Shown: positions 10,923-46,416 of the stretch, piece by piece | Layout of the letters: each line of letters begins with the position of its first letter | Position numbering within the stretch: the stretch's first letter is position 1 | Assembly: GCA_046346705.1 (NCBI GenBank) | Contig: JAXMHR010000014.1 | Location: 84,106-148,105, forward strand | DNA from: Verrucomicrobiota bacterium | GTDB taxonomy: Bacteria; Verrucomicrobiota; Verrucomicrobiia; Limisphaerales; UBA9464 | Reading direction: 5' to 3' | DNA: 64,000 bases | Position numbers and translations under genes: made by a program | Notes under the pieces: model-generated | Seen by the model: the letters and a program-made list of their open reading frames with translations, nothing else | Database searches by the model: none | Told to the model about the DNA's origin: nothing

Positions 10923-11518
10923 CCACACCCACTCCGGAGACTGCCCCGGATGCCCGCCGCCTCAACATCGGGTGCGGTCTCGACCTGCGTCCCGGCTGGG
11001 TCAATCTCGACATGGTCGATTACGGCGGGAATACCGTGTGCGATCTGAACCGGTATCCGTGGCCATTCCCGGACTCCCACTTTGATGAAGTCCTGGCGAG
11101 TCACATTCTGGAGCACATGGGGAATTTCAACTCCGTGATCACGGAGATCTGGCGGGTGTCCAAGCCGGGCGCGCTGGTCGTGGTCCGCGTCCCGTTTTTC
11201 CTCAGCACCAAGTACTACTCCGAGCCGGATCACCGCATCCCGTTCGGTATCCGGTCGTTTGACAATTACGAGGATTTCTCACACCGGCGGCTCCGGTTCT
11301 ACGAGCGGTGGAAGGCTGGTGACCGAACCAATTACGGTTCACCAGCTCGATACATCGTAGAAAGTAAGCGGTTTCACTTTTCGAATTTTAGAGTCCTGCG
11401 ATGGCTGGATCACTTTATCAATCTGGAGCCCGTCATTTATGAGCGGTTTCTGGCGACCTTGTTGACCCCAGAAGAGGTTTGGTTTCGGCTTCGGGTCGCG
11501 AAATCGCCCATCAGGTGA
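10919..11518 (+). CDS. class I SAM-dependent methyltransferase (Methyltransf_11/23-like)
   Basis: 199 aa. LNIGCGLDLRPGWVNLDM motif I, ASHILEHM, GALVVVRVP. 4-nt overlap with the upstream gene. The 3' third is visibly AT-richer. Confidence 0.75.
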   Translation: MTTPTPETAPDARRLNIGCGLDLRPGWVNLDMVDYGGNTVCDLNRYPWPFPDSHFDEVLASHILEHMGNFNSVITEIWRVSKPGALVVVRVPFFLSTKYYSEPDHRIPFGIRSFDNYEDFSHRRLRFYERWKAGDRTNYGSPARYIVESKRFHFSNFRVLRWLDHFINLEPVIYERFLATLLTPEEVWFRLRVAKSPIR

Positions 11519-11544
11519 TCTGTGAGCATCGGTTTTGCTTACTA

Positions 11545-12258: not shown

Positions 12259-12361
12259 TTTGTCTGGTCGCAGGGTTGCAGCATGATGGTCCGGTTCGCG
12301 AGACGAAAATGCTGCCGAAGGAGAACCTTCGGCAGCATTACGAGTGGTATGCAGAGGAGAT

Positions 12362-13666
12362 TTAGGGCAGTTGAACGAGTCGGAACAGTCTGGTGCCCTT
12401 ATCCCGGGTGCTGACGAGTATCGTGCCTTCAGCGCCGCTTCCGACGAAGGGGTCTCCATATGGCTTCCAAGAGGATCCCGCGAGGTCCTCGCGCCATTCG
12501 ACCTGAAGCCGTTTTCCAGCGACTGTTTGCCACACCAACTCGATTGCGGGTACTGCTTGGATGGGGTGGGTGATTGGATCTGCGAAGCCGTCGAGTTCCC
12601 AAATCCGGGGGGCGCTCCAGAATCTGACGCCGGTATCCACGAATTCAGCGCGATACTCCCGGGCGATAGGACCTGCGACCGTCGATGAGAGAATCAGTCG
12701 GGTATCGAAGTCCTCGAATGTATACGGATGGCTCGGAGAGAAGTCATAGAGCACCGTGTCGAAGGTTTGAGACCCCTGCGATTTTGCGAGAAGTCGAAAG
12801 CGGTCAAACTCCCGGCCATTGAGGAAGGTTGGGCCGTCCCCTTGGGCACGAAGATAGATGGATCGAACTCGAACAGGTTCCTTAGTGGCCCATTCAATGA
12901 AGTGAACGTAGCCGGCAGAGTGGCCATCTTCGAATGTGAAGGTCGTCATCCCGTCTGCGTTGGGAAACAGTCCGCCAAACATATTTTCAGGACGGAACGT
13001 AGCATCAGCCTGGCCGCTGATACCTGTAATGGTCGTTCCCTGACTAAGGTCCCATAGATCGCCTTTAGATCCGAAATCATAGGGTGGGCCAAACCCGTCG
13101 AGTTCCCAAATTCGAGGAGCACTCCAATATCTCACACCGGTGTCCACGAACTCTGCCCTGAACTCCTGCGCGACGACTGGAGGGAACTGGGCAGCCAAGA
13201 CGAGGCGGGTCGAAAAGTCGGTGAAGGAGAACGGATGCGTCGGGGTGTACTCGTAAAGCAGGATATCGAAATTCGTCGAACCGATAGACTTTGCGAAGAG
13301 CCGGAATTTGTCGAATTCGCGGCCGTTCAAATAAATCGGGCCGTCGCCTTGGCTTCTCAGCTCGAACGAAGCTACCCCAACGGGCGCGGCAGTCTTCCAT
13401 TCGATGAAGTGGACGTACCCTGCCGGTCTCCCGTCCTCAAAGGTAAAACTGTGCCGACCGTCTGCATTGGGGAAGGTGCCTCCGAAGGCATTTTCGGGAC
13501 GAAATGACAAATCAGCCTGTCCGCTGATTTTTGTGATCACCGTTCCTTGACTTACATCCCAGAGATCTGTTTTGGATCCAAAATCCAAATCATCGGTTTG
13601 TGCCGACAGGATTGATGCTCCGGAAAGCAAGAAAGCTAACCAGGAACAATTTTTAAAAAGATTCAT
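12362..13666 (-). CDS. secreted protein with two tandem ~167-aa domains plus a C-terminal FFR-type module; function unknown
   Basis: Start moved to MNLFKNCSWLAFLLSGASILSAQ (signal peptide, ATG at 13666). Repeat 1 is at nt 13088-13588 and repeat 2 at nt 12581-13078. C-terminal IELVWQTVAGKRLQVEW...SSWKP...TRLFRLVQLP. Confidence 0.7.
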   Translation of the reverse strand: MNLFKNCSWLAFLLSGASILSAQTDDLDFGSKTDLWDVSQGTVITKISGQADLSFRPENAFGGTFPNADGRHSFTFEDGRPAGYVHFIEWKTAAPVGVASFELRSQGDGPIYLNGREFDKFRLFAKSIGSTNFDILLYEYTPTHPFSFTDFSTRLVLAAQFPPVVAQEFRAEFVDTGVRYWSAPRIWELDGFGPPYDFGSKGDLWDLSQGTTITGISGQADATFRPENMFGGLFPNADGMTTFTFEDGHSAGYVHFIEWATKEPVRVRSIYLRAQGDGPTFLNGREFDRFRLLAKSQGSQTFDTVLYDFSPSHPYTFEDFDTRLILSSTVAGPIAREYRAEFVDTGVRFWSAPRIWELDGFADPITHPIQAVPAIELVWQTVAGKRLQVEWREDLAGSSWKPYGDPFVGSGAEGTILVSTRDKGTRLFRLVQLP

Positions 13667-13769
13667 CAGGTGATCAGGTGAAGGTTTGGTACTGCTTGAG
13701 TTTGTAGCTGTCTGGCTACGTGGGACGTTGACGGTTGTCAAGATTGATTCAGTTCCGGCGTTTCATCTT

Positions 13770-22268: not shown

Positions 22269-23696
22269 ATGCGATTCCCTCTCGCGCTGACGTTAAAGAT
22301 TGCCAAGCACATCACGAAGAACCGGCTGAAGGGCACCTCCAAGTTTGCGATGGTGCTGCAGTTGGAGCCGCTTCATACCTGCAATCTCACGTGCACGGGG
22401 TGCGGACGCATCCGGGAGTATTCCACCAGTTTGAAGGATTTGGTTCCGCTCGAGCAGTGTCTCGCAGCGGCGGCGGAGTGTGATGCCCCGATGGTGTCCG
22501 TCTGCGGTGGGGAACCCCTGATTTACCCGAAGATTGAGGAATTGGTGGCAGGGCTTCGGGCCCAGGGGCGGATCATCTACATCTGCACCAACGGCGTCTT
22601 CATGCGGAAGAAGATGCGTGAGCATCTGGCGGCGACGTACGGCCCGGCTGTCGAGCCGACGGTGGCGCGCCTGTTGTCCGAAGGATTGATCACCGAGAAG
22701 GAGGCTGAGCAGATCCGCAATCCCGACGAGGCGGCCCGGAAGAAGGTGACCATGGGCCCCACGAAGTGGATGTACTGGAATGTCCATGTGGACGGATTGG
22801 AATACACCCACGACCTCATCGTGGAGCGCGAGGGCGTGTTCAAGGAGTGCGTGCTGGCCATCCGGATGGCCAAGATCGTCGGCTACCAGGTGGCCACGAA
22901 CACCACGGTGTACAAGGAGACCAATCCGGCGGAACTCGAGCAGATGTTCCAGTTCCTCAGTTCGCTGGAAGTGGACGGACACACCATTTCTCCGGGATAC
23001 GATTACGATGCGGCAAAGAAGGACATGGTGAAGCGGTTGGGCCGGGACCCGAAGGATTTCTTCCTGACCCGGGATCTGGTCCGCGAGAAGTTCAAGGACA
23101 TCCGCCGATGGGGTGAGCAGTTCACGCTGTTTGGAACGCCGGTGTATCTGGAGTTCCTGGCGGGTCGCCGCGAACTGCCCTGTTCCGCCTGGGCGATCCC
23201 CACGTACAACGTCCGCGGCTGGAAGGCTCCGTGTTATGTCATGACCGAGGGACACTACGGCAGCTACCAGGAGGTGCTGAACAAGGTGGACTGGGAGAAG
23301 TACGGCACGAAGGACGGCGTGGCGCTGAATCCGAAGTGCGAAAACTGCATGATGCACAGCGGCTATGAGCCGTCGGGTGCGTTGAGCACCAAGCTCGGCG
23401 ACACCTGGGTCAACATGAAGTTCAACTTCGGTTCCAAGCCGAAGCCCTATCCGGCCTCCGCCGAGCTGACGAAGGCGGCCTACAACGGCGCCACCATCGG
23501 CAAGGGCCATCTCGCCGAGGCCAAGGCGGCCGTGAACCGCGAGTTGTCCGGAGCCAAGTCGGCCTATCAGCGCAACGGCGATGATCATACTCACGACCAC
23601 AGCGCCGGCGCCGACTCCTGCGGAAGCTCCCCGGAGCGTGATGCGCTGCTCGCCAAGGTGCGGGATGCAAAATCGGCTGAAGTGAAGGCCAGTTAG
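22269..23696 (+). CDS. radical SAM protein, HpnH-like (adenosylhopane-synthase family architecture with DUF3463-type C-terminal half)
   Basis: 475 aa. LEPLHTCNLTCTGCGRI (CxxxCxxC), GGEPL, ICTNG, VHVDG, VDGHTISPGYDY, FLEFLAGRRELPCSAW, GWKAPCYVM, KCENCMMHSGYE. Extra segment between ICTNG and VHVDG, and a ~90-aa C-terminal tail. Confidence 0.7.
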   Translation: MRFPLALTLKIAKHITKNRLKGTSKFAMVLQLEPLHTCNLTCTGCGRIREYSTSLKDLVPLEQCLAAAAECDAPMVSVCGGEPLIYPKIEELVAGLRAQGRIIYICTNGVFMRKKMREHLAATYGPAVEPTVARLLSEGLITEKEAEQIRNPDEAARKKVTMGPTKWMYWNVHVDGLEYTHDLIVEREGVFKECVLAIRMAKIVGYQVATNTTVYKETNPAELEQMFQFLSSLEVDGHTISPGYDYDAAKKDMVKRLGRDPKDFFLTRDLVREKFKDIRRWGEQFTLFGTPVYLEFLAGRRELPCSAWAIPTYNVRGWKAPCYVMTEGHYGSYQEVLNKVDWEKYGTKDGVALNPKCENCMMHSGYEPSGALSTKLGDTWVNMKFNFGSKPKPYPASAELTKAAYNGATIGKGHLAEAKAAVNRELSGAKSAYQRNGDDHTHDHSAGADSCGSSPERDALLAKVRDAKSAEVKAS

Positions 23697-23739
23697 GTTT
23701 TTGCGATCCGGATTCGGGCCCAGAAGGGTTCCCAGCGCA

Positions 23740-23769
23740 GGACCGGCGGAAGCCGGTCCTTTGCATTTT
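23740..23769 (+). terminator. rho-independent terminator candidate
   Basis: GGACCGGC-GGAA-GCCGGTCC is a perfect 8-bp stem with a tetraloop, followed by TTTGCATTTT. Begins 44 nt after the radical SAM stop. Confidence 0.55.
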
Positions 23770-23785
23770 CAGGCTCGAAGGGACT

Positions 23786-26533
23786 TTGTCATCTTCGCGA
23801 ATGGCCTCCCGGTTGCTACACTCCAGCATGGCCCGGCGGTGTCTTCCAATTCTAGGCCGTGCGCTGAGCGCGGGATTGACCTCCCTCGCGGCGCTGGCTG
23901 CCGAACCGGCGTCGTTTCGCCTCCCGGCGCTGGTCCGGTTTGTTCCCGAGGCACCGACTCCGGTTTCGGCAGCCCTGGCTCGGGCCGCAGCTCCGTCTGA
24001 ATCCACGATCCAGGCCCATCCTGCGGACGCGCCGGACGAACTGTGGGAATTCACCGATCGCGTCGCCTTGCAGGTCGATGCCTCCGTGTCGGTCGATTCC
24101 CTTCTGGAGGGGACTTCGCTGGTTTTGGACCGGACAATCCGGCCGGGATTATTCGTCCTGCAGGCTCCCAGTGCGTCGGAGGCCTGGCGCGTGGCTTCAG
24201 AATGGGCGGGTCGTGCCGGTGTGGTTTCGGTACACCCCGTGGTGCATCCGCCATGGGAGGTGCAGGATGCCTATGCGGCGGCGCCCAATGACGAATTCTT
24301 TCGGGCGCAGGCCCGGGGTGTTCCCGGTCAGTGGTATCTGGAAAACCGGGATCCGGAAACCGGGACCCGAATGGGAGCGGACATCAACGTCCGTCCCGCC
24401 TGGGCCATCACCCGCGGTGGAGGCGTCACGGTGGGGGTCGCGGATACCGGCGTGCAACTCACGCATCCCGACCTGCTGACTGCGACGTCTGGCAGGCCGC
24501 ATTTCAATTTCGATCTCGGAACTTCGGACGGGCGAAACATCCGGACGGACAACCTGGGGGCGCATGGGACCTCGGCGGCCGGATTGATCGCGGCCACGGC
24601 CAACAACGGATTGGGGATGAGTGGAATTGCCCCGGAGGCGGGGGTCGCCAGCTGGGTGATCTACAACCCCCGCGGGCAGATCGTGACCGACGAGAAACTT
24701 GGGGATGTCTTCCGACACGCCGGCGACCGGGTTGCCGTGCAGAGCCACAGTTGGGCACCCCCCGGACGTCGTCAGGTCGGGCCCTCGGTGCTTGAAGATG
24801 CGGGCATCCAGGATGCCTGGACCCTGGGGCGGGGTGGACTCGGAACGGTCATTGTGCGGAGTGCGGGCAACGACCGGGCGCGCGGGGCGCAGGCGGGGGA
24901 TGATGGATTTGCCGATGACCCGAGGGCGATCTGCGTGGGCGCCGTTCGCAACGATGGCAGTCCCGCCGGATATTCCGAGCCCGGCGCATGCGTCCTGGTG
25001 GCCGCCCCAGCGGGCGAACAGGATCAGGGCGGGCTTTTCACGACGGATCTTCAGGGGCCGGAGGGTGGGAACTTCATCAGCTATTTCCCGCCTGATGAGT
25101 ATTTGTCCGACTACCGCTGGGGCGCGCTGGGATTCTCCGGAACTTCCGCCGCAACTCCCGTCGTCGCGGGAGTGGCTGCCCTGGTGCTCTCGGTGAATCC
25201 GGGTCTTTCCGCACGCGACGTGCAGCAGGTGCTCCTGCTAAGCGCGCGACATTGGTATTCGACGGATCCGGGACTGGCCCGGAATCGGGCCGGTTTGACC
25301 TTCAGCCACAACCTGGGATTTGGAGTCGTGGATGCCGGTGCCGCGGTGCAACTGGCCCGCCACTGGTCCAACCGTCCCGCTGCCATCGAAGTGACGGCGG
25401 AGTCGCCGGGATCCGCGACGGAGATCCCTGATGCCGGGCTGCGTGTGGAACTGGAGGCGGAAACCGCGGGGGGGGAACCCCTGGTGATTTCCGGTCTTCC
25501 GGGGACGGGCATTCATCCGGAGTCGGCGACGGATTGGCTGCCCCTGGTCGATCTCGGGCTGGCGTTGACCGATCCGCCGCAACGGATCGACGGTCACGGG
25601 GCGCTGATTGAACGCGGGCAGGTCAATTATTCCGAGAAACTGGCCCGCGCTGCGGCGGCAGGGGCGGCGTTCGCGGTCGTCTATAATGCGGCCGCCGAAG
25701 TAATCCCCGATGGCAGTTGCCCGGGGGGCGAGCAGTTGTGTGTCCTCGCGGGAACGGATTACTCGCCGATTCCGGCCCTCTTCGTCCGCCGTTCCGCTGG
25801 GTTGGCGCTGCGCGACGCGATCACGACCGGTCCATCCCGTCGGGCCCGACTGCACCTCGCATCGGCGGTGCGAACCTTTGAGATCAGCCAGGACCTGCAG
25901 TGTGAGCACGTGGGTGTCCGCCTGCGGACGGATCACTCCGGACGCGGCGATCTCCGCGTGACGCTGCGCTCGCCATCCGGAACGGTCAGCGTCCTTCAGC
26001 GATACAATGCCGATACCAATGCGGGCCCTGCCGACTGGACCTACTGGAGCACACAGCATTTCTTCGAGCCGTCGGCCGGGACTTGGGAGCTGCGGGTGAC
26101 GGACGAGGCGGAATTGGAGGGGCGCGGCCAGGTGCTGGGAGCGACCCTCCGCGTGCAGGGAGTGCCGATTTTGGATTCCGACCATGATGGGTTGGAGGAC
26201 TCCTGGGAACGACTGCACTTCGGTGATCTGAACCAGGGACCGGCGGAGGATCCGGATGGGGACGGAGCCAGCAATCTCCTTGAGTCACTGACGGGAGGGG
26301 ATCCGCGTGTGGACGAGCGTTCGGCGGCGCCCGACGTGGGCTTTTTCAATGACCACGTGGTGCGGGTGAGCTGGCCCGGGGTAAGCGGAAGCGCCCATCA
26401 GGTGGAGGCCGGATCCTCCGTTGGGGATTGGAAGTCGGTGACCCGGGTCGAGGACCATTTTCCGGTGTCCGATGTCCTGGTGCCCGCGCCATCAGATGCT
26501 GGCGGATTCTTCCGGGTCACTCCGGCGCTGTAA
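23786..26533 (+). CDS. exported subtilisin-family (S8) protease of kexin/proprotein-convertase type with P-domain
   Basis: 915 aa. Catalytic triad contexts VGVADTGVQLTHPDL (Asp), HGTSAAGLIAA (His), GTSAATPVVAGVAALV (Ser). P-domain-like CEHVGVRLRTDHSGRGDLRVTLRSPSGT. Ca-binding DSDHDGLEDSWE / DPDGDGASNLLE. C-terminal FFR-type module. The start could be ATG 23801. Confidence 0.85.
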   Translation: MSSSRMASRLLHSSMARRCLPILGRALSAGLTSLAALAAEPASFRLPALVRFVPEAPTPVSAALARAAAPSESTIQAHPADAPDELWEFTDRVALQVDASVSVDSLLEGTSLVLDRTIRPGLFVLQAPSASEAWRVASEWAGRAGVVSVHPVVHPPWEVQDAYAAAPNDEFFRAQARGVPGQWYLENRDPETGTRMGADINVRPAWAITRGGGVTVGVADTGVQLTHPDLLTATSGRPHFNFDLGTSDGRNIRTDNLGAHGTSAAGLIAATANNGLGMSGIAPEAGVASWVIYNPRGQIVTDEKLGDVFRHAGDRVAVQSHSWAPPGRRQVGPSVLEDAGIQDAWTLGRGGLGTVIVRSAGNDRARGAQAGDDGFADDPRAICVGAVRNDGSPAGYSEPGACVLVAAPAGEQDQGGLFTTDLQGPEGGNFISYFPPDEYLSDYRWGALGFSGTSAATPVVAGVAALVLSVNPGLSARDVQQVLLLSARHWYSTDPGLARNRAGLTFSHNLGFGVVDAGAAVQLARHWSNRPAAIEVTAESPGSATEIPDAGLRVELEAETAGGEPLVISGLPGTGIHPESATDWLPLVDLGLALTDPPQRIDGHGALIERGQVNYSEKLARAAAAGAAFAVVYNAAAEVIPDGSCPGGEQLCVLAGTDYSPIPALFVRRSAGLALRDAITTGPSRRARLHLASAVRTFEISQDLQCEHVGVRLRTDHSGRGDLRVTLRSPSGTVSVLQRYNADTNAGPADWTYWSTQHFFEPSAGTWELRVTDEAELEGRGQVLGATLRVQGVPILDSDHDGLEDSWERLHFGDLNQGPAEDPDGDGASNLLESLTGGDPRVDERSAAPDVGFFNDHVVRVSWPGVSGSAHQVEAGSSVGDWKSVTRVEDHFPVSDVLVPAPSDAGGFFRVTPAL

Positions 26534-30080: not shown

Positions 30081-32612
30081 TTACTCCCCGGAACCGTTGG
30101 ACGGAGCCTCGGGCGCAGAGTCGGGGGAGGCAGGGGTCTTGGATGGCTGCTGGCCTATGGAGTCCAGATGCCGTTCCGCCGCGCGATTCAGCTTGTCCCG
30201 CTCCTGTTTGAAGTCGGCTTCCAGCATTCGGATTTGAGGGGAGTCCTGCTGGTATTGCTTGGTGAGCTCGGCCGCGGACTGCGGGTTGGGCAGCACGGTG
30301 GGGCGCATCAGGATCATCAGTTCCGTGCGGGACTTGTCCACCGTGGTGGACCGGAACAGGGCGCCGAGGAGCGGGATGTCCTTGAGCAGCGGCACGCCGG
30401 ACTTGGTGTTCCCCTTGGAGGCGCGGATGTAGCCGCCGAGCAGGACTGATTGTCCGGTCTGGACGGAGATCGTCGAGGTGGCCTGGCGCTTGTTGGTCAC
30501 GGGAGCGTTTTGGGCGGTCTCGATGCCGCCGTTGTTGGGGGCGATTTCCTCAATCGTCTGCTCCACCTCCATCACCACCAGTCCGTCCGAGGTGATGTAG
30601 GGCAGGACGTTCAGTCCCACGCCGACATTCTGTCGGTCGTAGAAGGTGCTGGTGCCCACCAGGCCGACGCCATTGTTGTAGCCGCCCTGCACGAACGGCA
30701 CGGTCTGACCGGCGAAGAAGTTGGCCGGCGTCGCGTGCGACGTGATGATGCGCGGGCGTTGGAGGATGTTCACGTTGCCGTCCGAAGCCAGCGCCTTGAC
30801 GATCACGTCGATATCCTGGTTGAAGCGGAGCAGGTAGTTGAGTCCGCCGCCGGTGGGAATCGTCGGGAAGATGTTGGTGAGCGAGTTAAAGCCGTTGAGA
30901 TTGTCCATCGTGCCGCCGCCCCCGACGGTGTCGTTGAACTGCTTGTACTTCTGGCGCGCACTGACGCCGTAGGAAAGGCCGGAGGTGAGTCCCACCTCCA
31001 TGATGACGCCTTCGATCAGGACCTGAGCGAGGAGGGTGTCCACCTTCTCGATGATCTTCCGGAGCTGCGCCATGTCCTTCCGGCTTGCGTAGATGATGAG
31101 GGAGTTGGAGCGGGGATCGGGGGTGATGCTGGCCTCGCCGGAGAGCGGTTGCGCGGGATTCTGCTGGGCGCCGGCGCGGTTGGCGTTATTGAGGCGTCCC
31201 TGGAAGGTGTTGGCTCCCCCGGAGGTGCCCGTGGGCCGGGGCGTGGCGACCTGCTGGGGCAGGAGCGGTTCGGTTCCTTCGGATTGGCCGTAGTATTGTC
31301 CGGAACTGCGGCTCCCGTACGAACTGCCCATCGAGCTTCCGAGTCCGCTTCGACCCAACCCGCTGCCCAGGCCCCCTCCGAGTCCTCCGCCCAGGCCGCC
31401 TCCGAGGCCCCCATTGCGCCGTCCGGTGGACGCCGGGAGCGCGCCGCCGCCGCCGCCACTGATGACGCTGCTCAGGGTCTGGTACAGTTCCTCGACCTTC
31501 CCGAATTTGATCGGGAACACCTCAAAGATGTATTCCTGCTCCACCTCGACATCGATCTTCTTCAGGACCTCCAGCATGCGCTTCACGTTGATGGCATAGT
31601 CGCGCAGGATGAGGGTCTTGGTGGATTCGAGGGCCACGATGCCATTCTGGTTCTTGGCGAATTGCTTCAGGGTCTCCGCGGCTTCCAGGACCGGCACGTG
31701 CTCCACCTTGATGACGTGGGTGACGAACTGGCTGGCTTCCGCGTAGTCCTCCACCTTCTTGTTGGCGAATGCGGCGCCCTCCTGCAGGGCCTGGGCGGTG
31801 GGCACGGCGAGCACGGCCTTCTCGCCGGTGGGAATCATGGTGATTCCATTCAGGGCGAGGATGGTGTCGTACATTTGAAGCCGTTCGTCGGGCGTGAGGG
31901 TCGTGGCGGGCTTGAAATTGATCTGCGTGGTCGTGGGAAGATTCGAGGCGCGAAGGACCGTGCGCTTGGAAATGGTGGAGTATTCGTCGAGGAACTGCTC
32001 CAACGGCATGTTCTTGAAATTGATGACATCCGTGGCGTCCGCGGTGTCGGTTCCGGCCGGATTGGGTGTCCGGACCGCATTTGTTGCCGAACCGGCGGCC
32101 CCCGCGGTGGAACCCCCGGGATTAAACGGAGGGAGATTCATGCCCACGGGACGTCCGGCCGGCCTCGGGAGATTGAAGCGGGCGGCGTTGGTGGCCGCGG
32201 CGCCGGAAGCGGGGCGCGGCGGGGGCCCGAGGGGATTGACCGGAGTCGGGGTTGTGGGACCTGGAACCGGAACCACCGGCGCCGCGGTCCCTGCAGGCGC
32301 GGTCACAGGCGGGGCGGCCGTGGTGGGAGGCGTCGTGGTCCCCGGTGCGGGAATGGTGGCCGGGGGAACGGCGTTGGGAGGGATTCGGGTGGGATTGTTC
32401 GGGCCTGCGGTGGCGGGAGGCGGGACGGCCTGGGTGGGGTCCACCCCGGGGGCGTCGACCTCCGGGACCGCGGTGACCGCCGGATCCACGACGATGTGTT
32501 CCACGACGGGCGCATCGTCGGGCTTGCCGGGCTCCGAAAGCGCGAAATCCTGGGCGAGGGCGCCGGAGGCCGCCAGCCAGAGCGCAAGAAGGGAAGGCAC
32601 GAGAGGTTTCAC
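30081..32612 (-). CDS. gspD: secretin (GspD/PilQ family)
   Basis: 843 aa. Signal peptide MKPLVPSLLALWLAASGALA. Pro/Thr/Ala-rich N-terminal region and repeated N-domains. Secretin core with GVPLLKDIPLLGALFRS and ELMILMRPTVL. Confidence 0.85.
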   Translation of the reverse strand: MKPLVPSLLALWLAASGALAQDFALSEPGKPDDAPVVEHIVVDPAVTAVPEVDAPGVDPTQAVPPPATAGPNNPTRIPPNAVPPATIPAPGTTTPPTTAAPPVTAPAGTAAPVVPVPGPTTPTPVNPLGPPPRPASGAAATNAARFNLPRPAGRPVGMNLPPFNPGGSTAGAAGSATNAVRTPNPAGTDTADATDVINFKNMPLEQFLDEYSTISKRTVLRASNLPTTTQINFKPATTLTPDERLQMYDTILALNGITMIPTGEKAVLAVPTAQALQEGAAFANKKVEDYAEASQFVTHVIKVEHVPVLEAAETLKQFAKNQNGIVALESTKTLILRDYAINVKRMLEVLKKIDVEVEQEYIFEVFPIKFGKVEELYQTLSSVISGGGGGALPASTGRRNGGLGGGLGGGLGGGLGSGLGRSGLGSSMGSSYGSRSSGQYYGQSEGTEPLLPQQVATPRPTGTSGGANTFQGRLNNANRAGAQQNPAQPLSGEASITPDPRSNSLIIYASRKDMAQLRKIIEKVDTLLAQVLIEGVIMEVGLTSGLSYGVSARQKYKQFNDTVGGGGTMDNLNGFNSLTNIFPTIPTGGGLNYLLRFNQDIDVIVKALASDGNVNILQRPRIITSHATPANFFAGQTVPFVQGGYNNGVGLVGTSTFYDRQNVGVGLNVLPYITSDGLVVMEVEQTIEEIAPNNGGIETAQNAPVTNKRQATSTISVQTGQSVLLGGYIRASKGNTKSGVPLLKDIPLLGALFRSTTVDKSRTELMILMRPTVLPNPQSAAELTKQYQQDSPQIRMLEADFKQERDKLNRAAERHLDSIGQQPSKTPASPDSAPEAPSNGSGE

Positions 32613-32618
32613 AGCGGT

Positions 32619-33284
32619 CTATTTTTTCGGTGGAGTGGCGCCGGAATTGGTGGGCGACGCTCCTTTGGGTTGAACGGCGGCGGGACGGGAAGGTTTCGCG
32701 GAGGCGGGCGCGGCAGGGGGCGCCTTGGGCTTTTTTTGGTAGCTGGCGACGATCGTCAGCGTGGTTTGAAGCTTCGTCTGGCTCGCGTCGAGCCGGAGGC
32801 GGGAGATGTCCCGGACGCGGATGAGGGAATTCCCCGCTCCCAGGGAGTGGAGAAAGTTGACGAGTTCCGGTTCGCTGGCCGTGACCTCGGCCGTCATCTG
32901 GTTCTCCTCAAAAAAGGCGTTGGTCTGGCCGGTCCGTGCGCTGGTGGCGATCGGACGAATGTTCCCGACCGTGACCCCGTATTCGGCCGCCTTGGACTGG
33001 ATCATCGACTGCAGCCGGTTGGCCTGTTCCTCCTGGGGGACCTCCGCGCCGGCCAGTTGCAGTTCCTTGAGCTGCTTCTCGTAGCCGCCCTTGTTCCGGA
33101 TCTCCTTCTCGTACTTCAACTGGTTCGCCGTCAGCTTCTCAATGTCCAGCTGGACCTCCTTCCAGCGTCCGAAGAAGGGCCAGACGATCCAGTAGTTGAC
33201 CACGACCGCCAGCACGACCAGTCCGACGAGCAGCCAGCGCCGCTCCGTGGGCTGGAGATTGAGCTTGTCGAGCCACTTCATCAT
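32619..33284 (-). CDS. PilO/GspM-like bitopic assembly protein
   Basis: 221 aa. N-terminal TM (RRWLLVGLVVLAVVVNYWIV), coiled coil, small periplasmic domain, Pro/Ala/Lys-rich tail. ATGA overlap with the upstream gene. Ends 6 nt before the secretin gene. Confidence 0.5.
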   Translation of the reverse strand: MMKWLDKLNLQPTERRWLLVGLVVLAVVVNYWIVWPFFGRWKEVQLDIEKLTANQLKYEKEIRNKGGYEKQLKELQLAGAEVPQEEQANRLQSMIQSKAAEYGVTVGNIRPIATSARTGQTNAFFEENQMTAEVTASEPELVNFLHSLGAGNSLIRVRDISRLRLDASQTKLQTTLTIVASYQKKPKAPPAAPASAKPSRPAAVQPKGASPTNSGATPPKK

Positions 33285-34663
33285 GGCGTGTCGCTCCTCC
33301 GGAGTTCGGCCTCGAAATTCCAGGTGGTGATGTTGGCGCCGGGACGGGTGTCGAACTGGGTCGCCTTCACGTTGGAGAAGAGGGGCTGGCCACCCGCCTG
33401 GGACTTCTTGAGCTCGGAATTAAACTTGGTGATGTCCGCCGTGCTGTCCGGCGGGACCGTGCCCCGCAGCGCGAGGGTGTGCCCCTTTTGGAAATCCAGC
33501 TGGGTCAGGGTCGCCGAGGCAGGCAGCAGGTCCACCGCCGCCTTCCAGGCGTCGAGGGCGGCAAACTTCAGGGCCACCTGCTCCTGGAGGACTCCCACCT
33601 GGGCCCGGAGCTGCAGGCTGTTGGTGTAGGTGATCCCCATCGAGGAGACCTCGGACCGGAGGTTGTCCCGCTGCAGCGTCCGGATGTTGAGCGCGATGAG
33701 AAACGCGAACACGAACACCACGTAGGCCACGGCCAGCGCCCCCAGTCCGCCCATCCACAGGCGGTCCATCGCCTTCTGACGCTGGGTGCTGGTCCATTCC
33801 GCAGGGACCAGCGGGGTCGCGGGGGCCTTCAGGAAGTGGGTGCAGCTGGCCAGCGCGAGGAGGGGCAGGGGCGACGGGGTTTCCCGCTGGACGGGATGGC
33901 CGGACCATGCGCTGAGAATCGGCTCCATTTCGCCGGCGAGGATGGGATCTGCGACGATGTGGACCGGCGGGACGCTGGTGAACCAACCGTCCATTTCACC
34001 CGCCCAGGCGATCTGGCCGAGCTGCGAGGCGAGCGCCGGCGCGCCGTTGGGTCCCGGAGCGACCGACAACAGGGTGACGTCGCGCCAGACGCCGCCGAGG
34101 AACCACCCGGCGAGGCCGTAGCGCTTATCCCCCGAGGATTCGAAGATCAGCCAGAGTCCATCCCCGGACGGCTGGAGCGCCTGCCACGCCCGGACCAGCG
34201 GCAGGTCGATCTGGTCCGGAACAAATCCGGCAGCCGCCTGTTCGTTGAGAAACTCTTCGACACTGGACCGTGAGGCCAGGGTGACGAGGGCCGTTTGCTG
34301 CTGGCCGTCCGGATGCATCACGCCGACCGCGGTCCAGGTGATCTGGTTGACCGGGAGAGGGGAAATGCGATCCAGCTGAAATTCCACCAACGCCTGGATC
34401 TCGGCGGGGTCTCCGGAGGGCAGTTGGATCGCTCGGACGAAGGCGCCCTCGGTGGGCAGCCAGGCCACGCGCAGGCAGGGCTGGAAAATCGACTGCCAAT
34501 CCCGCGTCTGGAGCCGCTTGGGCAGCGGCTTGCCCGCGTCGAGCCGGAGTTCCCCCGCGGGTTTCACCCGGTTCCGGGCCACCTCAAACTGCCATACCCG
34601 GCGTCCGATGGGCGACGACGAGAGGACGACTCCCGACTGAAATCGCTGCGAACGCGCCTTCAT
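33281..34663 (-). CDS. PilM-PilN fusion / GspL-like assembly protein
   Basis: 460 aa. ~300-aa cytoplasmic domain, one TM (LWMGGLGALAVAYVVFVFAFLIALNI), ~125-aa PilN-like periplasmic domain. ATGA overlaps at both ends. Confidence 0.5.
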   Translation of the reverse strand: MKARSQRFQSGVVLSSSPIGRRVWQFEVARNRVKPAGELRLDAGKPLPKRLQTRDWQSIFQPCLRVAWLPTEGAFVRAIQLPSGDPAEIQALVEFQLDRISPLPVNQITWTAVGVMHPDGQQQTALVTLASRSSVEEFLNEQAAAGFVPDQIDLPLVRAWQALQPSGDGLWLIFESSGDKRYGLAGWFLGGVWRDVTLLSVAPGPNGAPALASQLGQIAWAGEMDGWFTSVPPVHIVADPILAGEMEPILSAWSGHPVQRETPSPLPLLALASCTHFLKAPATPLVPAEWTSTQRQKAMDRLWMGGLGALAVAYVVFVFAFLIALNIRTLQRDNLRSEVSSMGITYTNSLQLRAQVGVLQEQVALKFAALDAWKAAVDLLPASATLTQLDFQKGHTLALRGTVPPDSTADITKFNSELKKSQAGGQPLFSNVKATQFDTRPGANITTWNFEAELRRSDTP

Positions 34664-36402
34664 GATTTCGCCCTCCCGGGGTCCGACATGAGGCTGCGGA
34701 CATGTTCCTCAGTCTGCGTGACGCGGAGCACCTCCTCCAGGGTGGTGACCCCAGCCTTGACCTTGCGCCAGCCGTCCTCGCGGAGCGTGCGCATTCCCTG
34801 GGCCTTGGCCGCCTGGGCGATGTCGGAGGCCGGGGCCCGGTTCATGACCAGGGGCCGGATGGCCTCGCCGACCACCAGCAATTCATGGATGCCCGTGCGT
34901 CCCTGGTACCCCAGTTGGCGGCATTCTTCACATCCGACGCCCTTGAGGAAGGTCGTGGAGGCGATTTCGTGTTCCGGGAATCCGATGCGCACCAGGTAGT
35001 CGTGATCCACCTTTTGCGGCACCTTGCAGTGCGGGCAGATGGTCCGGACGAGGCGTTGCGCCATCACCGCCTCGACCGAGGACGCGACGAGGAAGGGCTC
35101 GATGCCCATGTCGATGAGCCGGGTGAAGGCGCTCGGGGCGTCGTTGGTGTGCAGCGTGCTGAAGACGAGGTGGCCCGTGAGGGACGCCCGGATCGCGATC
35201 TCGGCCGTTTCGAGGTCGCGAACCTCGCCGACCATGATCACGTTGGGATCCTGACGCAGGATGTGTCGCAGCCCGACGGCAAACGTCAGGCCGATCTCGC
35301 TGCGCACCGGGATCTGGTTGATGCCCTTGAGCTCGTACTCCACCGGCTCCTCGATGGTGATGATGCGCTTGGTGACCGAGTTGATGGTCGAGAGGAAGGC
35401 GTAGAGGGTCGTCGATTTGCCGGATCCGGTCGGGCCGGTGACCAGGAAAATTCCGTGCGGTTTGACGATGATCTCACGGATGGCCTCGTCCTCGTCGTGT
35501 GCGAATCCGAGCTTCTCGAGTCCGAAGAAGATCTTGCCGCGGGTCAGCAGGCGCAGCGACACCGACTCCCCCCAGACCGTGGGAACGGTCGAGACGCGGA
35601 TGTCGATTTCCTCGCCCTTGATGCGGACGTTGATGCGGCCGTCCTGGGGGAGCCGCTTCTCGGCGATGTTCATTCCCGCCATGACCTTGATGCGGGAAAT
35701 GAGCGCCGCCTGGTACCGCTTGATCTGCGGGGGCAGCGGCGTCTGGTGGAGAATGCCGTCGATGCGGTACCGGATCCGGAGTTCGTCCTCGGACGGTTCG
35801 AAGTGAATGTCCGTCGCCCGTTCCTTGAACGCCTCCCAGACCACTTGGTTGACGAACTTGATGACGCTGGCGTCCTGATCGTCCCCGGTGATTTCCCGGT
35901 CGTCGCCGACGATGAGCTCCATCGGCTCATCCTCGGACATTTCATCGAGGGTTTCGGCGCCGACGCCGTAATACTTTTTCAGCGCCTTCTCGATGTCGTT
36001 GCGGGTGGACAGGACGTACTGGACCGGGCCCCGGGCGTCGAACTGCACGGCCGCCTGCATGGCCGGGTCGAAAGGGTTATGGGTGGCCACCTGCAGGGCG
36101 CCGGCCTCCTCGCGGATCGGGAGGGCCGAGAACTGGAAGGCGACCTTGGTGGAAACCCGCTTCCGAATCTCCGTGTCGATAGAAAGCCGGCTGATTTCGA
36201 CGTACGGCCAGTCGAGGGCCTGCGCGAGCTTCTGCAGGAACTGCTCCTCGGAAATCCCGGATTCCCGGGCGAAGAAGGCCAGCTGGCTTTCGGTGCCGCC
36301 ACCCTCCACGGCGGACCTCCACGCCGCCGTCCAGTCACGGAACTGGGCGGGAGTGATCAGTCCCGCCCGTTCTAGGATTCCCTGAAGTGACCGGTATGCC
36401 AT
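34660..36402 (-). CDS. gspE: type II secretion / type IV pilus assembly ATPase (GspE/PilB family)
   Basis: Start moved to MAYRSLQGILERAGLITPAQF (ATG at 36402). T2SSE_N-like N-terminus. Walker A GPTGSGKSTTLY, IITIEEPVEY, Walker B VIMVGEVRD. Tetracysteine CPHC...CEEC. Confidence 0.9.
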   Translation of the reverse strand: MAYRSLQGILERAGLITPAQFRDWTAAWRSAVEGGGTESQLAFFARESGISEEQFLQKLAQALDWPYVEISRLSIDTEIRKRVSTKVAFQFSALPIREEAGALQVATHNPFDPAMQAAVQFDARGPVQYVLSTRNDIEKALKKYYGVGAETLDEMSEDEPMELIVGDDREITGDDQDASVIKFVNQVVWEAFKERATDIHFEPSEDELRIRYRIDGILHQTPLPPQIKRYQAALISRIKVMAGMNIAEKRLPQDGRINVRIKGEEIDIRVSTVPTVWGESVSLRLLTRGKIFFGLEKLGFAHDEDEAIREIIVKPHGIFLVTGPTGSGKSTTLYAFLSTINSVTKRIITIEEPVEYELKGINQIPVRSEIGLTFAVGLRHILRQDPNVIMVGEVRDLETAEIAIRASLTGHLVFSTLHTNDAPSAFTRLIDMGIEPFLVASSVEAVMAQRLVRTICPHCKVPQKVDHDYLVRIGFPEHEIASTTFLKGVGCEECRQLGYQGRTGIHELLVVGEAIRPLVMNRAPASDIAQAAKAQGMRTLREDGWRKVKAGVTTLEEVLRVTQTEEHVRSLMSDPGRAKS

Positions 36403-36652
36403 GCAAGTGGTGAACTCCGGCAGATTCAACGGCCTCCGTCCGGAAAAGTTGCGCGCAGTAAACGGGGAAGTGGAGTCCGGGACAAGTGAGTACCTCCGTG
36501 GCGGGGTCGAAAACTTTGGGGATCAGCGTGTGGACGGACCCGGGCCGTGGACGAAGTCGGCTGCCGCCCGGGGGTTTGGGATGGACGGCCGGGGGGCCAT
36601 TCGGCACAACTCCGTGCAAGCATCCTTTATTGCACTTCACTTTCCCCAAGCC

Positions 36653-39485: not shown

Positions 39486-40838
39486 TCAGCGAAGCAGCAG
39501 CTTCTCGAGATACCCGACCGTCTGTCGCACCTGGGGATCCACCTCCATGCGGTTCTTCACAGCGCGCACGGCGTGCAACACCGTGCCGTGGTCGCGTCCG
39601 CCGAAGGCATCCCCGATGGAACTCAGCGAACTCTCGGTCAGGGTCCGGCAAAGAAACATGGCCACCTGACGGGGGAAGGCGATGTTCTCCGGACGGCGCT
39701 TGCTGGTCATGTCGGCGAGCCGGATGTCGTAGTGCTCGGCCACCCGCTTCTGAATCACCTCAAATGTGATGGCACGGCGGCTCTCCTCCTGGAGGATCTC
39801 GCGGAGCAGGTTTTCAACGTCGTCGAGTCGCACCGGACGTCCGGTGAGCTGGGTGAAGCTGGCCACGCGGACGAGCGCGCCTTCGAGGCGTCGCACGTTG
39901 GTGCGGATGCGATCCGCGAGGAACTGGACGATTTTGTCGTCGAGTTGGATGCCGAGTACGGCCGCCTTTTGACGGAGGATGGCGAGGCGCGTTTCGACGT
40001 CGGGCGGCTGGAGATCGGCGGTCAGACCCCATTCAAAGCGGGAGATCAGCCGTTGTTCGAGTCCGGGAATCTCGCTGGGCAGTTTGTCGCAGGTCAGGAC
40101 GATCTGCTTCCGTGCCTCGTGGAGTGTGTTGAAGGTGTGAAAAAATTCCTCCTGGATGCGTTCCTTGCCACTCAGGAACTGGATGTCATCCACGAGAAGG
40201 CAGTCCACCTGGCGATACCGGCGCCGGAACTTGGCCAGGGAGTTGTTCTGCAGGCCGTCGATGAACTCGTTGGTGAAGCGTTCGCAGCTCAGGTAGGCCA
40301 CCTTGGCGTTCTTGCGATGACTCAGGACTTCCTGGCCGATGGCGTTGAGAAGATGGGTCTTTCCGAGCCCGACGCCGCCAAACAGAAAGAGCGGATTGTA
40401 GGAACGCCCGGGATTTTGCGCGACGGCGATCGCCGCACTGTGGGCCATCTGGCTGTTGCTGCCGACCACGAACGTGGAAAACGTGTTGCTCGGATTGAAC
40501 GACGCCTCGACGGGGCGGCCGGCTACGGTGACCACACGCGGTTCCTCGCGGACCGGTGCGGGTGCGGGCCGGGCGGGAACGCTGGACAGGACTCCGACGA
40601 CAAACTCGATCTGGACCGGACGGACCGCCGTGCGGCTGGCCACCGAACGCAGGAGATCGAGATAATTATCGGTCAGCCACATCGCACAAAAGTCGTCGCG
40701 GACCTCCAACTTGAGGCGGTCACCCTCGAGGGAGACCGCGCGGATGGGCTCAAACCAAAGCTGATAAATGTCCGGTTTCAGGAGGCCTTGCAGGTGCTCC
40801 TGGACATTGGTCCAAAGGGTTTCGGCGGTGACGGGCAT
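39486..40838 (-). CDS. dnaA: chromosomal replication initiator protein DnaA
   Basis: Walker A GGVGLGKTHLLNAIG, LLVDDIQFLSGKERIQEEFFHTFN, C-terminal DNA-binding domain IAFPRQVAMFLCRTLT..SLSSIGDAFGGRDHGTVLHA. Start taken as ATG 40838 (MPVTAETLW). An upstream in-frame GTG at 40889 is the ORF-track start. Confidence 0.95.
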   Translation of the reverse strand: MPVTAETLWTNVQEHLQGLLKPDIYQLWFEPIRAVSLEGDRLKLEVRDDFCAMWLTDNYLDLLRSVASRTAVRPVQIEFVVGVLSSVPARPAPAPVREEPRVVTVAGRPVEASFNPSNTFSTFVVGSNSQMAHSAAIAVAQNPGRSYNPLFLFGGVGLGKTHLLNAIGQEVLSHRKNAKVAYLSCERFTNEFIDGLQNNSLAKFRRRYRQVDCLLVDDIQFLSGKERIQEEFFHTFNTLHEARKQIVLTCDKLPSEIPGLEQRLISRFEWGLTADLQPPDVETRLAILRQKAAVLGIQLDDKIVQFLADRIRTNVRRLEGALVRVASFTQLTGRPVRLDDVENLLREILQEESRRAITFEVIQKRVAEHYDIRLADMTSKRRPENIAFPRQVAMFLCRTLTESSLSSIGDAFGGRDHGTVLHAVRAVKNRMEVDPQVRQTVGYLEKLLLR

Positions 40839-40881
40839 TCTGGGTGGCTGGAAAGGGCGTTCCGGGGGAGAAAATCTGGGT

Positions 40882-40903
40882 TTATTCACGCCCCAAATTC
40901 ACA
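40882..40903 (+). promoter_or_regulatory. pair of DnaA-box-like 9-mers upstream of dnaA
   Basis: TTATTCACG (40882-40890) and AAATTCACA (40895-40903), compared with the consensus TTATCCACA. They lie 44-65 nt upstream of the ATG at 40838. Confidence 0.4.
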
Positions 40904-41261: not shown

Positions 41262-41630
<369 letters not shown>

Positions 41631-45564: not shown

Positions 45565-46416
45565 GTGGTTTACGCGGTTTCATTCCCCCGTCGGCGCCGC
45601 AGTTCTGGGTTCACGCTCCTGGAACTGCTCGTCGTCGTCGGGATCATCGCCATTCTTGCCGGGCTCCTTCTGCCCGCCCTGGGCAAGGCCAAGTCCCAGG
45701 CCCGAAAAGTGAACGAGATGTCGTCCGCCCATCAGATCATGCTGGCCTGGACGATGTATGCCGACGATCACGGGGAGCGCGTGCTGAAGGGATACCGCCA
45801 CTTTGCACCGGGCGAGGAACTGCCCGTGGACAACATCGGCAAACCTGTGCCGCATCCCATCAACTGCCGCTACCCGTGGCGCCTCGCACCGTGGCTGGGG
45901 AAGAGCTTTGCCACGATGTACGCCAACGAGAACCGTCCGTTGTTGGAACAATTCCAGCATATGTCCGATCCGTTCATCGGTACCTACGCTGCCAGCGTGT
46001 TTCCCTCGCTGGGGATCAATGCGACCTTTGTGGGGGGGGATGATCTGGAACTGCCCCCGGAGCCCCGTGCCTTCGAGCGGTTCGGGCCTTTTTGTGTCCT
46101 CAAGACCTCGGACGCCCGGCGCCCCAGCGACCTGATGGTCTTCACCTCCGCCCGGGGGCCGTTTGAAGGCAAGGTCGTCAACGGGTTCTATTTGGTGAAG
46201 TCCCCGTACTTCATGGCGCGGCGCTGGTCGGAGGATTTCCATCCAGGGGACGGCCCCGAAGCCTGGGGGCATGTCCACCCGCGGTATTCCAATCGGGCGT
46301 TGGCCAGCATGGTGGACGGCCATGTCGAAGCCCTGGACCGACGCGAGTTGGAGGATATGCGCCATTGGGCCAATCAGGCGGACCGGCCCGACTGGACGCT
46401 TCAGCGGGTGAAGTAA
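45565..46416 (+). CDS. prepilin-type N-terminal cleavage/methylation domain protein (pseudopilin-like, DUF1559/H-x9-DG-like)
   Basis: GFTLLELLVVVGIIAILAGLLLPALGKAK class III signal. C-terminal ...ASMVDGHVEAL. There is no ATG before the signal, so the start was set at the in-frame GTG 45565 (low certainty). ORF track 45430..46416. Confidence 0.75.
   Translation: MVYAVSFPRRRRSSGFTLLELLVVVGIIAILAGLLLPALGKAKSQARKVNEMSSAHQIMLAWTMYADDHGERVLKGYRHFAPGEELPVDNIGKPVPHPINCRYPWRLAPWLGKSFATMYANENRPLLEQFQHMSDPFIGTYAASVFPSLGINATFVGGDDLELPPEPRAFERFGPFCVLKTSDARRPSDLMVFTSARGPFEGKVVNGFYLVKSPYFMARRWSEDFHPGDGPEAWGHVHPRYSNRALASMVDGHVEALDRRELEDMRHWANQADRPDWTLQRVK

Follow-up and report, generated by a model that had tools for sequence, protein, structure and literature searches.

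Gene arrangement of the E-L-M-D operon

In a 64,000-nt stretch of the verrucomicrobial contig JAXMHR010000014.1 (positions 84,106 to 148,105; the whole stretch is in the following called the window), a DNA with a G+C content of 65%, we delineated a block of four minus-strand open reading frames (ORFs) that runs from 36402 to 30081. Read in the direction of transcription, they encode a GspE/PilB-family ATPase (E), a GspL-like bitopic protein (L), a GspM/PilO-like bitopic protein (M) and a GspD-type secretin (D). We refer to this block as the E-L-M-D cassette; the coordinates of its genes and domains are collected in Table 1.

The four genes form one translationally coupled operon. The start codon of L lies on the stop codon of the ATPase gene in an ATGA overlap (34660-34663), M starts in the same way on the stop codon of L (33281-33284), and the junction between M and the secretin gene reads TAG-ACCGCT-GTG, that is, a gap of 6 nt. 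The reading as a single transcript derives from these overlaps and the 6-nt gap only. In all four frames, the G+C content is 0.84-0.87 at the third codon position and 0.42-0.49 at the second, which marks them as real coding frames of a 65% G+C genome. Upstream, the operon is bordered by a divergent gene of the TPMT methyltransferase family (Pfam, E 7.5e-29), downstream by a convergent metallophosphoesterase gene that ends at 30076. The first-pass annotation, made from the letters of the sequence, had described four minus-strand genes between 36402 and 30081 with two ATGA overlaps and a 6-nt gap, bounded by these same two neighbors; the ORF list, direct reading, the Pfam matches and the coordinates all agree with it.

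The true start of the methyltransferase gene is likely near 36651, leaving about 250 bp of intergenic DNA, which, from its position in the sequence, is presumed to be the promoter region of the four-gene operon. A consensus scan of this region (36403-36650) detected no sigma-70-like site, and a scan for promoters and terminators yielded no terminator within the operon above chance level. The start codon of the ATPase gene is uncertain. The ATG at 36402 given in the first-pass annotation lies in frame and is plausible as a start, though unproven: the automatic listing begins at a TTG (34660-36429), and in a near-identical strain gene callers gave a shorter product of 549 amino acids (aa). Thus 36402, 36429 or an internal GTG may be used.

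Table 1 Features of the E-L-M-D cassette and related elements of the window.
Feature	Residues (aa)	Position in the window (nt)	Strand	Details or basis
GspE/PilB-family ATPase gene		34660..36402	-	580 aa from ATG 36402
ATPase, N-terminal MshEN/GSPII-type domain	64-148	35959-36213	-	Pfam
ATPase, T2SSE catalytic domain	175-560	34723-35880	-	Pfam
ATPase, Walker A GPTGSGKST	323-331		-	motif scan
ATPase, tetracysteine CPHC...CEEC (Zn-site motif)	456-459 and 491-494		-	motif scan
GspL-like bitopic protein gene (L)		33281..34663	-	460 aa
L, cytoplasmic actin-like domain	1 to ~285	33809-34663	-	AlphaFold (AF2) model, Foldseek
L, transmembrane helix	302-327	33683-33760	-	model/hydropathy
L, periplasmic coiled coil and ferredoxin-like domain	328-460		-	AF2 model
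L, ferredoxin-like part	385-454	33302-33511	-	AF2 model
GspM/PilO-like bitopic protein gene (M)		32619..33284	-	221 aa
M, transmembrane helix	17-38	33171-33236	-	model
M, coiled coil	between transmembrane helix and ferredoxin-like domain		-	model
M, ferredoxin-like domain	84-183	32736-33035	-	AF2 model, Foldseek
M, disordered Pro/Ala/Lys-rich tail	184-221		-	model
GspD-type secretin gene		30081..32612	-	843 aa, GTG start
Secretin, signal peptide	1-20		-	
Secretin, Pro/Ala/Thr-rich linker	24-190	32043-32543	-	167 aa; 25% Pro, 18% Ala, 13% Thr
Secretin, N0	197-265	31818-32024	-	Pfam
Secretin, N0-N1-N2 region	185-391		-	PDB alignment
Secretin, Gly-rich insert between N domains	386-442	31287-31457	-	57 aa
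Secretin, pore domain	607-774	30291-30794	-	Pfam
Intergenic region, ATPase gene / divergent methyltransferase gene		36403..36650	.	~250 bp, sequence read; presumed promoter region
Orphan prepilin-type protein gene		45565..46416	+	283 aa; class III signal peptide, then unannotated globular domain

The ATPase and the secretin

As a reference for Xps-type type II secretion systems (T2SS), we used the operon on the Comamonas odontotermitis plasmid NZ_CP083452.1, which has the order gspE-F-G-H-I-J-K-"PilN domain protein" (L)-gspM-hypothetical gene-gspD. The GspE of this plasmid, which heads the operon, is the best plasmid match of the cassette ATPase, with 44% identity over 97% of its length. It matches the Pfam families T2SSE (E 2.3e-138) and MshEN (E 1.8e-16), and with its Walker A motif and tetracysteine Zn site it has what is expected of the GspE-family ATPase of a T2SS. 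The NCBIfam models place it close to both relatives and below both cutoffs, with 606.8 bits for GspE (cutoff 630.25) and 593.6 bits for PilB (cutoff 675.65). Among PDB sequences, it matches PilB over its full length with 451 bits and GspE over the catalytic part with 412 bits. Residues 4-20 of the ATPase (36343-36393 of the window), which read RSLQGILERAGLITPAQ, lie outside the Pfam MshEN match; this segment may resemble the MshEN c-di-GMP-binding motif RLGxxLLxxGxIxxxQL, substituted at the first positions.

The secretin is assigned more clearly. It combines the Pfam domains Secretin (E 2e-44), Secretin_N (E 1.3e-20) and GspD N0 (E 3.3e-4); Pfam gave these three only, and no AMIN domain was found. 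The NCBIfam score is 326 bits for GspD (cutoff 351) versus 161 bits for PilQ (cutoff 284) and 141 bits for MshL, and among PDB sequences GspD (5wln) reaches 158 bits versus 92 bits for PilQ. Residues 185-391 align with the crystal constructs of GspD N0-N1-N2 (E 5e-12). The protein is a GspD-type secretin with N0-N3 and a C-terminal secretin domain. It is 27% identical to the Comamonas GspD, and its Gly-rich insert is aligned with a Gly/Ser-rich insert of the latter. The linker following the signal peptide and the Gly-rich insert are both unusual features for a secretin.

The two bitopic membrane proteins

No Pfam or NCBIfam family was recognized in L. Its AF2 model was built on a 33-sequence alignment and reached a predicted local distance difference test (pLDDT) value of 84. 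The model consists of two RNase-H-like lobes, a very long helix (residues 288-378) that holds the sole hydrophobic segment, and a C-terminal domain of beta-beta-alpha-beta-beta topology. Foldseek matched the N-terminal domain to PilM (2ych, E 8e-12) and to the cytoplasmic domain of EpsL (1yf5, E 9e-10), and also returned PulL (5tkw), the GspE-GspL complex (4pht) and FtsA; for the cytoplasmic domains of EpsL, PulL and GspL, E-values were about 1e-9 with TM-scores of about 0.55 on the target. As judged from the model, L is bitopic and combines, like GspL, an actin-like domain in the cytoplasm with a ferredoxin-like domain in the periplasm; it is predicted to bind E. At the sequence level, the profile of the L family matches Thermus PilM among PDB sequences (E 3.9e-5). 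Using hhalign, the family was aligned with the Xps-type GspL of Comamonas over the same motif (E 4.7e-5), and a phmmer search with this GspL matched 36 members of the L family (best E 2e-6). Judged by these alignments, the homology of L to Xps-type GspL is weak but direct.

Relatives of L are present in 517 GTDB species genomes, nearly all of Verrucomicrobiota, the closest being a Verrucomicrobiales metagenome-assembled genome (MAG) with an L protein of 93% identity. A library clustered at 50% identity contains 3003 representatives at E<=1e-3, of which 292 reach E<=1e-30; the best 150 of these matches are all close relatives, and there is no canonical GspL among them. Some family members (P0121, P0122, P0125, P0127, P0130, P0131 and the gene at 10001-11842 of locus L004) are longer, with 560-670 aa, and carry an N-terminal extension of 110-200 aa. 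In P0121, P0125 and P0127 no Pfam match was found; the extension is either a real extra domain or the result of mis-called starts.

M passes the Pfam family T2SSM_b with 22.0 bits, just over the cutoff of 21.7, matches T2SSM with E 1.2e-3, and matches the NCBIfam model of XpsM-type GspM with E 5.7e-12 (45.7 bits, under the cutoff of 60). Within its family, T2SSM is matched by 21 of 24 members, T2SSM_b by nine and PilO by six. The AF2 model (pLDDT 78) has an alpha-beta-beta-alpha-beta-beta core, for which Foldseek returned PilO (3jc8_Oa, E 2.5e-6; 2rjz, E 4.6e-5) and also Amuc_1100 of Akkermansia. Compared with PDB sequences, the family profile gave only a borderline match to PilO (E 0.07). M corresponds to GspM of a T2SS, the small bitopic partner of L whose periplasmic domain is ferredoxin-like. 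From a Verrucomicrobiota MAG, a protein with 100% identity to M is deposited under the locus tag U1G08_16265 and annotated as hypothetical.

The predicted fold of M fits the crystal structures of Amuc_1100 about as well as it fits the PilO core. Amuc_1100 is a much-studied "pili-like" outer-membrane protein of Akkermansia. Because the M model matches its structures, the comparison suggests that Amuc_1100 is a PilO/GspM-fold protein of a sister module.

In the first-pass annotation, the four products had been called a GspE/PilB ATPase, a 460-aa PilM-PilN-like (GspL-like) bitopic protein, a 221-aa PilO/GspM-like protein and an 843-aa secretin. These calls were borne out throughout: for the ATPase by T2SSE and by the near-equal GspE (607) and PilB (594) scores, for L by its fold, the Foldseek matches to PilM and GspL and the phmmer search, for M by the prevalence of T2SSM in its family and the PilO-like model, and for the secretin by NCBIfam and PDB matches, which moreover specify it as GspD-type.

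Conservation of the E-L-M-D arrangement

We compared the locus with two sets of related loci. The first comprises 84 loci with flanks of up to 10 kb, 80 from GTDB genomes and four from contig look-ups; the second comprises 80 metagenome loci of a divergent marine/soil subfamily, found with an alignment of three subfamily members. In the first set, the order E-L-M-D on one strand was observed at 71 of the 84 loci. Among the other 13, ten are truncated at the end of a contig, two contain an M so weak that tblastn missed it and BLASTP found it, and one (L071) has no E, so that the cassette is intact in 73 of 74 informative loci. All 80 metagenome loci keep the order as far as the contigs reach; among themselves, members of this subfamily share only 21-28% identity. 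Compared with the proteins of the window, identity is 63-98% for the ATPase (median 76% across 80 loci) and falls to 28-36% for L, M and D. Clustering of all ORFs in the flanks revealed no recurrent neighbor family; the flanks vary from locus to locus. Because the order is kept despite this divergence and amid unrelated flanks, the arrangement must be old and under selection. E-L-M-D is a lineage-typical layout fixed in a large part of Verrucomicrobiota, including Limisphaerales, Pedosphaera-type lineages and the divergent marine subfamily.

These data also bear on the idea that the cassette is a decaying, functionless remnant of a complete T2SS operon. Compared with the Comamonas operon, the F-K block and the connector gene (N/C) are indeed missing. 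Yet the four frames are intact, with strong coding bias at the third codon position and preserved start/stop overlaps, and conservation of all four extends over more than 150 loci, at identities down to 28-36% for L, M and D, with only one locus lacking a gene. The conservation data effectively refute the remnant reading, to which we give hardly any credence.

The exceptional locus L071 (JBGAGW010000007.1, 1-14564, from a Limisphaerales MAG) is the only one with L-M-D and no ATPase gene within 10 kb upstream, where genes for a lactonase, a Ser/Thr kinase-WD40 protein and a response regulator are located instead. Its ATPase gene must be elsewhere or lost; if E is unlinked here, linkage of E is not obligatory in the lineage. 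Several contigs with the cassette (L014, L023, L025, L035, L039, L054, L070 and L081) come from MAGs labeled as non-Verrucomicrobiota (Kapaibacterium, Limnocylindria, Haliangiales, Methylomirabilota, Bifidobacteriaceae) or as lake-derived "Akkermansia muciniphila". They look like mis-binned contigs or wrong labels rather than cases of horizontal transfer. In a plasmid collection, we found no plasmid of the Planctomycetes-Verrucomicrobia-Chlamydiae (PVC) superphylum with a relative.

Components absent from the cassette and a single prepilin-type gene

A Pfam scan of approximately 44 ORFs of the window identified no T2SSF (platform) domain, no A24 peptidase domain and no PilT-like gene. Queries for the A24 prepilin peptidase, GspJ and GspK gave no match in the window or in any of the 164 loci, nor did the small gene located between M and D in Comamonas. 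With GspG, GspH and GspI as queries, matches were confined to the N-terminal signal of prepilin-type proteins (225-297 aa) encoded at scattered sites, among which there was no protein of GspG size. A hydropathy screen of the ORFs at these loci for a GspF-like topology yielded only an Lgt-like protein. The statement of the first-pass annotation that platform protein, prepilin peptidase and pilins lie outside the operon accordingly holds for the window and extends to the 164 related loci.

One pilin-like gene had been noted in the window at 45565-46416, about 9 kb from the cassette, and its product is indeed the sole protein with a prepilin N-terminal methylation motif (Pfam N_methyl, E 1e-7). 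Only its N-terminal 56 aa match GspG or other pilins; the C-terminal domain was recognized by no model. The family is very large and well conserved, with 2162 matches at E<=1e-3, the 120 best listed being 55-94% identical. Homologs in other Verrucomicrobiota stand alone in unrelated contexts, with no secretion genes nearby, for which reason we regard the 9-kb distance to the cassette as coincidental. The protein is probably not a dedicated part of the cassette, and would need the same kind of peptidase and assembly machinery.

Proposed assignment of the cassette to a split T2SS-type machine

We consider it likely that ATPase, L, M and secretin are the core of an Xps-flavor T2SS-type machine, the remaining parts of which are encoded elsewhere. 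The T2SS flavor is indicated by the secretin, with its twofold higher score for GspD than for PilQ and its GspD-like N0-N1-N2 region; by M, which matches the XpsM-type GspM model and T2SSM; and by L, which is one fused polypeptide as GspL and was detected by an Xps-type GspL. If F-K and the small hypothetical gene are subtracted from the Comamonas operon, E-L-M-D remains, and on this basis we read the cassette as an Xps-type operon from which a block has been separated. Prepilin-type proteins encoded in the window and in the flanks of the related loci further lead us to expect a processing and assembly apparatus somewhere in the genome. Such split layouts are known: the T2SS genes of Legionella are distributed over five loci (lspC, lspDE, lspF-K, lspLM, pilD), and genes of type IVa pili (T4aP) are routinely split.

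In such a machine, L would hold the E hexamer at the membrane, its actin-like cytoplasmic domain being the docking site for the N-terminal domain of E. Pairing of L with M would involve the membrane helices, the coiled coils in the periplasm and the ferredoxin-like domains of both and would yield the cage of the assembly platform, and D would be the gated multimeric pore in the outer membrane, its N0-N3 rings reaching into the periplasm. The parts that build the piston filament, namely GspF, the pseudopilins (major and minor) and the prepilin peptidase, would be supplied in trans from another locus or loci, and protein secretion would be the presumable output. The layout would then go back to an operon of the order E-F-G-H-I-J-K-L-M-(N)-D, out of which the F-K block and the N/C gene had moved. 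We speculate that the GspC connector might be replaced by the secretin's long flexible linker or by the tail of M, which is rich in Pro.

Several results weigh against this assignment. The NCBIfam scores are all under their cutoffs (607 versus 630 for E, 326 versus 351 for D, 46 versus 60 for M), the ATPase is as near to PilB as to GspE in NCBIfam and PDB comparisons, and the nearest structural neighbors of L and M are PilM and PilO. Comparing the M family with the Comamonas GspM by hhalign gave no match; because this comparison was negative and the PDB profile match borderline, the identity of M derives from the family-wide Pfam and NCBIfam matches and the predicted fold. A GspC/XpsN/PilP connector is not present in the cassette, where genes that overlap or lie 6 nt apart offer no space for one; it may be encoded elsewhere. 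The partners in trans (GspF, GspG-K and the prepilin peptidase) are assumed, and the local searches located none of them in any genome with the cassette. For GspF, we built a hidden Markov model from three annotated proteins (Comamonas, Indioceanicola and Candidatus Manganitrophus). Searching all six frames, nothing was found at E<=10 in the window and the 84 loci of the first set (1.31 Mb), and the 80 metagenome loci (0.66 Mb) gave no match at E<=1 either; in total, the search covered 164 related loci and 1.97 Mb and located no GspF up to about 10 kb away from a cassette. Contigs of up to 22 kb from near-identical strains, which extend about 6-9 kb past both ends of the window, contain no secretion gene either. 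Finally, the only paper on a verrucomicrobial genome that we found to mention a T2SS lists GspD, E, G and O and not F (PMC8636102).

The PilB, PilM and PilO similarities are the starting point for a different assignment, in which the cassette is the core of a T4aP-like machine (PilB, a PilM-PilN fusion, PilO and secretin) that makes a filament on the cell surface, serving adhesion, motility or DNA uptake; the subunits might come from the orphan prepilin-type proteins, which are abundant in the genomes with the cassette. The best full-length solved relative of E is PilB, the N-terminal domain of E is of the MshEN/PilB type, and the top structural matches are PilM for L and PilO for M. In addition, six members of the M family match Pfam PilO, many have been named PilO or PilN by JGI, prepilin-type genes are common and scattered in the genomes with the cassette, and Akkermansia has a pilus-associated cluster of PilM-like, PilO-like and secretin genes (PMC5332112). 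Against these points stands the secretin, which is GspD-type with GspD-like N0-N2, scores half as high for PilQ and lacks a detectable AMIN domain, so that it is not of the PilQ type. M matches GspM models more often than PilO, L is fused as GspL and was found by a GspL, and the gene order is that of a T2SS operon. Separate PilM, PilN, PilO and PilP proteins beside PilQ are not what the locus encodes: the M and N parts are fused in the 460-aa protein, there is no fourth small gene and no room for a PilP ORF, and no PilT was found among the window ORFs scanned. The orphan prepilin gene, moreover, is not syntenic with the cassette. On balance, we judge a pilus-type core to be unlikely, though more likely than the other alternatives.

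The consistent local absence of GspF could also mean that ATPase, L, M and secretin work as a truly reduced machine with no GspF platform and perhaps no pseudopilus, that is, a new minimal envelope-spanning device. F never occurs within about 10 kb of the cassette at 164 loci; the cassette is compact, translationally coupled and autonomous amid variable flanks; L and M are too divergent for curated models; and the genome report cited above, with D, E, G and O and no F, fits as well. Local absence is, however, uninformative on the rest of a 5-8 Mb genome, and split layouts are well known. E keeps the full catalytic and Zn-binding architecture of filament-assembly ATPases, and prepilin-type genes in the same genomes imply assembly machinery. 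To our knowledge, every characterized type IV filament system needs a platform protein. We thus regard a reduced machine as quite improbable. A similarly slim chance is given to the bolder proposal that the machine is self-contained, with no GspF platform or with the classical pseudopilins swapped for the orphan 280-aa prepilin-type family, in which case it would represent a new branch of the type IV filament superfamily.

The first-pass annotation had left the choice between a machine split across the genome and a reduced variant. This framing was right, and the evidence, from local searches only, favors the split machine. The word "minimal" used there finds no support as a statement on the machine; it describes the locus only.

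Comparison with known systems

Full-text literature searches for a verrucomicrobial T2SS or the cassette yielded no description of the latter. The closest known arrangement is the Xps-type operon of Comamonas. Shared with it are the N-terminal GSPII/MshEN-type domain of E (with the 44% identity given above), the fused bitopic L, the XpsM-type M, a secretin with N0-N3 and a Gly-rich insert in a corresponding place, and the relative order E...L-M...D. In contrast, the cassette and every related locus are without F-G-H-I-J-K and without the small gene that separates M from D in Comamonas, the divergence of L and M exceeds what the Pfam and NCBIfam thresholds allow (M just passes T2SSM_b), and the secretin has its 167-aa Pro/Ala/Thr-rich N-terminal linker. 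The Lsp system of Legionella pneumophila is a working T2SS with scattered genes, in which D and E are together, L and M are together and F-K form a separate block. It differs in that the cassette has E, L, M and D in one operon.

With the alignment and motor subcomplex of T4aP (PilB plus PilM-N-O-P-Q), the cassette shares the folds of L and M, the ATPase family and the location of these genes beside a secretin gene with neither platform protein nor pilins. It differs by the fusion of the PilM and PilN parts, the lack of PilP, the GspD-type secretin and the ATPase gene inside the operon. The cluster Amuc_1098-Amuc_1102 of Akkermansia muciniphila similarly encodes a secretin, an FtsA/PilM-like protein and the PilO-fold protein Amuc_1100, and no platform protein (PMC5332112); unlike the cassette, it has no ATPase gene. 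Compared with the NCBIfam model of the Amuc_1098 secretin family (NF042912), the window secretin reached 45.9 bits over 72 C-terminal residues at a cutoff of 750, and we therefore regard the Akkermansia cluster as a different module.

A 2019 survey of type IV filaments classed the T2SS of Chlamydiae as "generic", with GspL/M and minor pilins undetectable (PMC6668835). Chlamydial systems (GspD, E, F, G), which likewise belong to the PVC superphylum, are rated incomplete or "generic" by standard models and are reported to lack GspL/M and minor pseudopilins. They are the mirror image of the cassette: there, F and G lie beside D and E with no recognizable L/M, whereas here L and M lie beside E and D with no F and G. 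A milder, though also unlikely, proposal would make the L and M families the "missing" GspL/M of the secretion systems of the PVC superphylum, including those of Chlamydiae.

All parts of the cassette are of known kinds; new are the fixed E-L-M-D packaging and the two divergent families not covered by models. In public annotation, L and usually also M are called "hypothetical". As no Pfam or NCBIfam model recognizes L, automated detectors (for instance TXSScan and KEGG modules) would probably rate the T2SS of organisms with the cassette as incomplete, just as happens with Chlamydiae. In soil, lakes and the sea, Verrucomicrobiota are among the major degraders of polysaccharides; they depend on exported enzymes, and their secretion machinery is almost unstudied. 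For this phylum, the analysis provides the definition of a GspL-like family (about 3000 clusters at 50% identity), a GspM-like partner family and a simple marker locus. The cassette is also a natural example of T2SS parts that selection keeps together, motor, scaffold and pore, apart from the platform/filament block. If it were true that the genomes have no GspF, the finding would be much more important.

Further features of the window

In close strains, the wider synteny around the cassette is kept, with genes for PAP2, SOUL, P-II, DnaA, BNR, integrase and TPMT proteins, the cassette, the phosphoesterase and a PhoU-like protein. The dnaA gene (39486-40889, minus strand) lies 3 kb from the cassette and adjoins the P-II gene (41262-41600, minus strand), an arrangement also kept in close strains. 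DnaA-box-like 9-mers are not enriched in the window (three found, 3.7 expected), and the cumulative GC skew reaches its minimum at about 6-8 kb, with a value at 8 kb that is 0.01 below that at 10 kb, and not at dnaA. Rfam and tRNA scans of the window returned nothing relevant.

On the plus strand at 22269-26533, a gene for a radical-SAM/DUF3463 protein is followed by one for a 915-aa subtilase with a PA domain and a proprotein-convertase P domain. This subtilase is plausibly an exported enzyme and a possible substrate of a secretion system. At 4198-8672 (plus strand), a gene for a PSCyt1/PSCyt2/PSD1 protein (1008 aa) precedes one for a DUF1501 protein (481 aa), a gene pair typical of Planctomycetes and Verrucomicrobia.

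The region 10071-13741 forms an island of low G+C content (0.54-0.58, versus about 0.65 elsewhere), which may have been horizontally acquired. Two paralogs within it (10071-10922, plus strand; 11545-12459, minus strand) have the motifs VLEIGNVLSHY and ISISTFEHIGFDDD in common; their family is unassigned, and the gene at 10071-10922 gave no Pfam or NCBIfam match. The island also contains a small ORF (10919-11518, plus strand) and a gene for a 459-aa secreted protein with two tandem copies of an unassigned domain (12362-13741, minus strand).

Toward the other end of the window (55329-60680, minus strand), a 1783-aa hybrid sensor kinase is encoded that combines laminin-G and carboxypeptidase-regulatory-like domains with Reg_prop propeller repeats and Y_Y_Y. 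A separate response-regulator/histidine-kinase gene follows it at 54211-55467.

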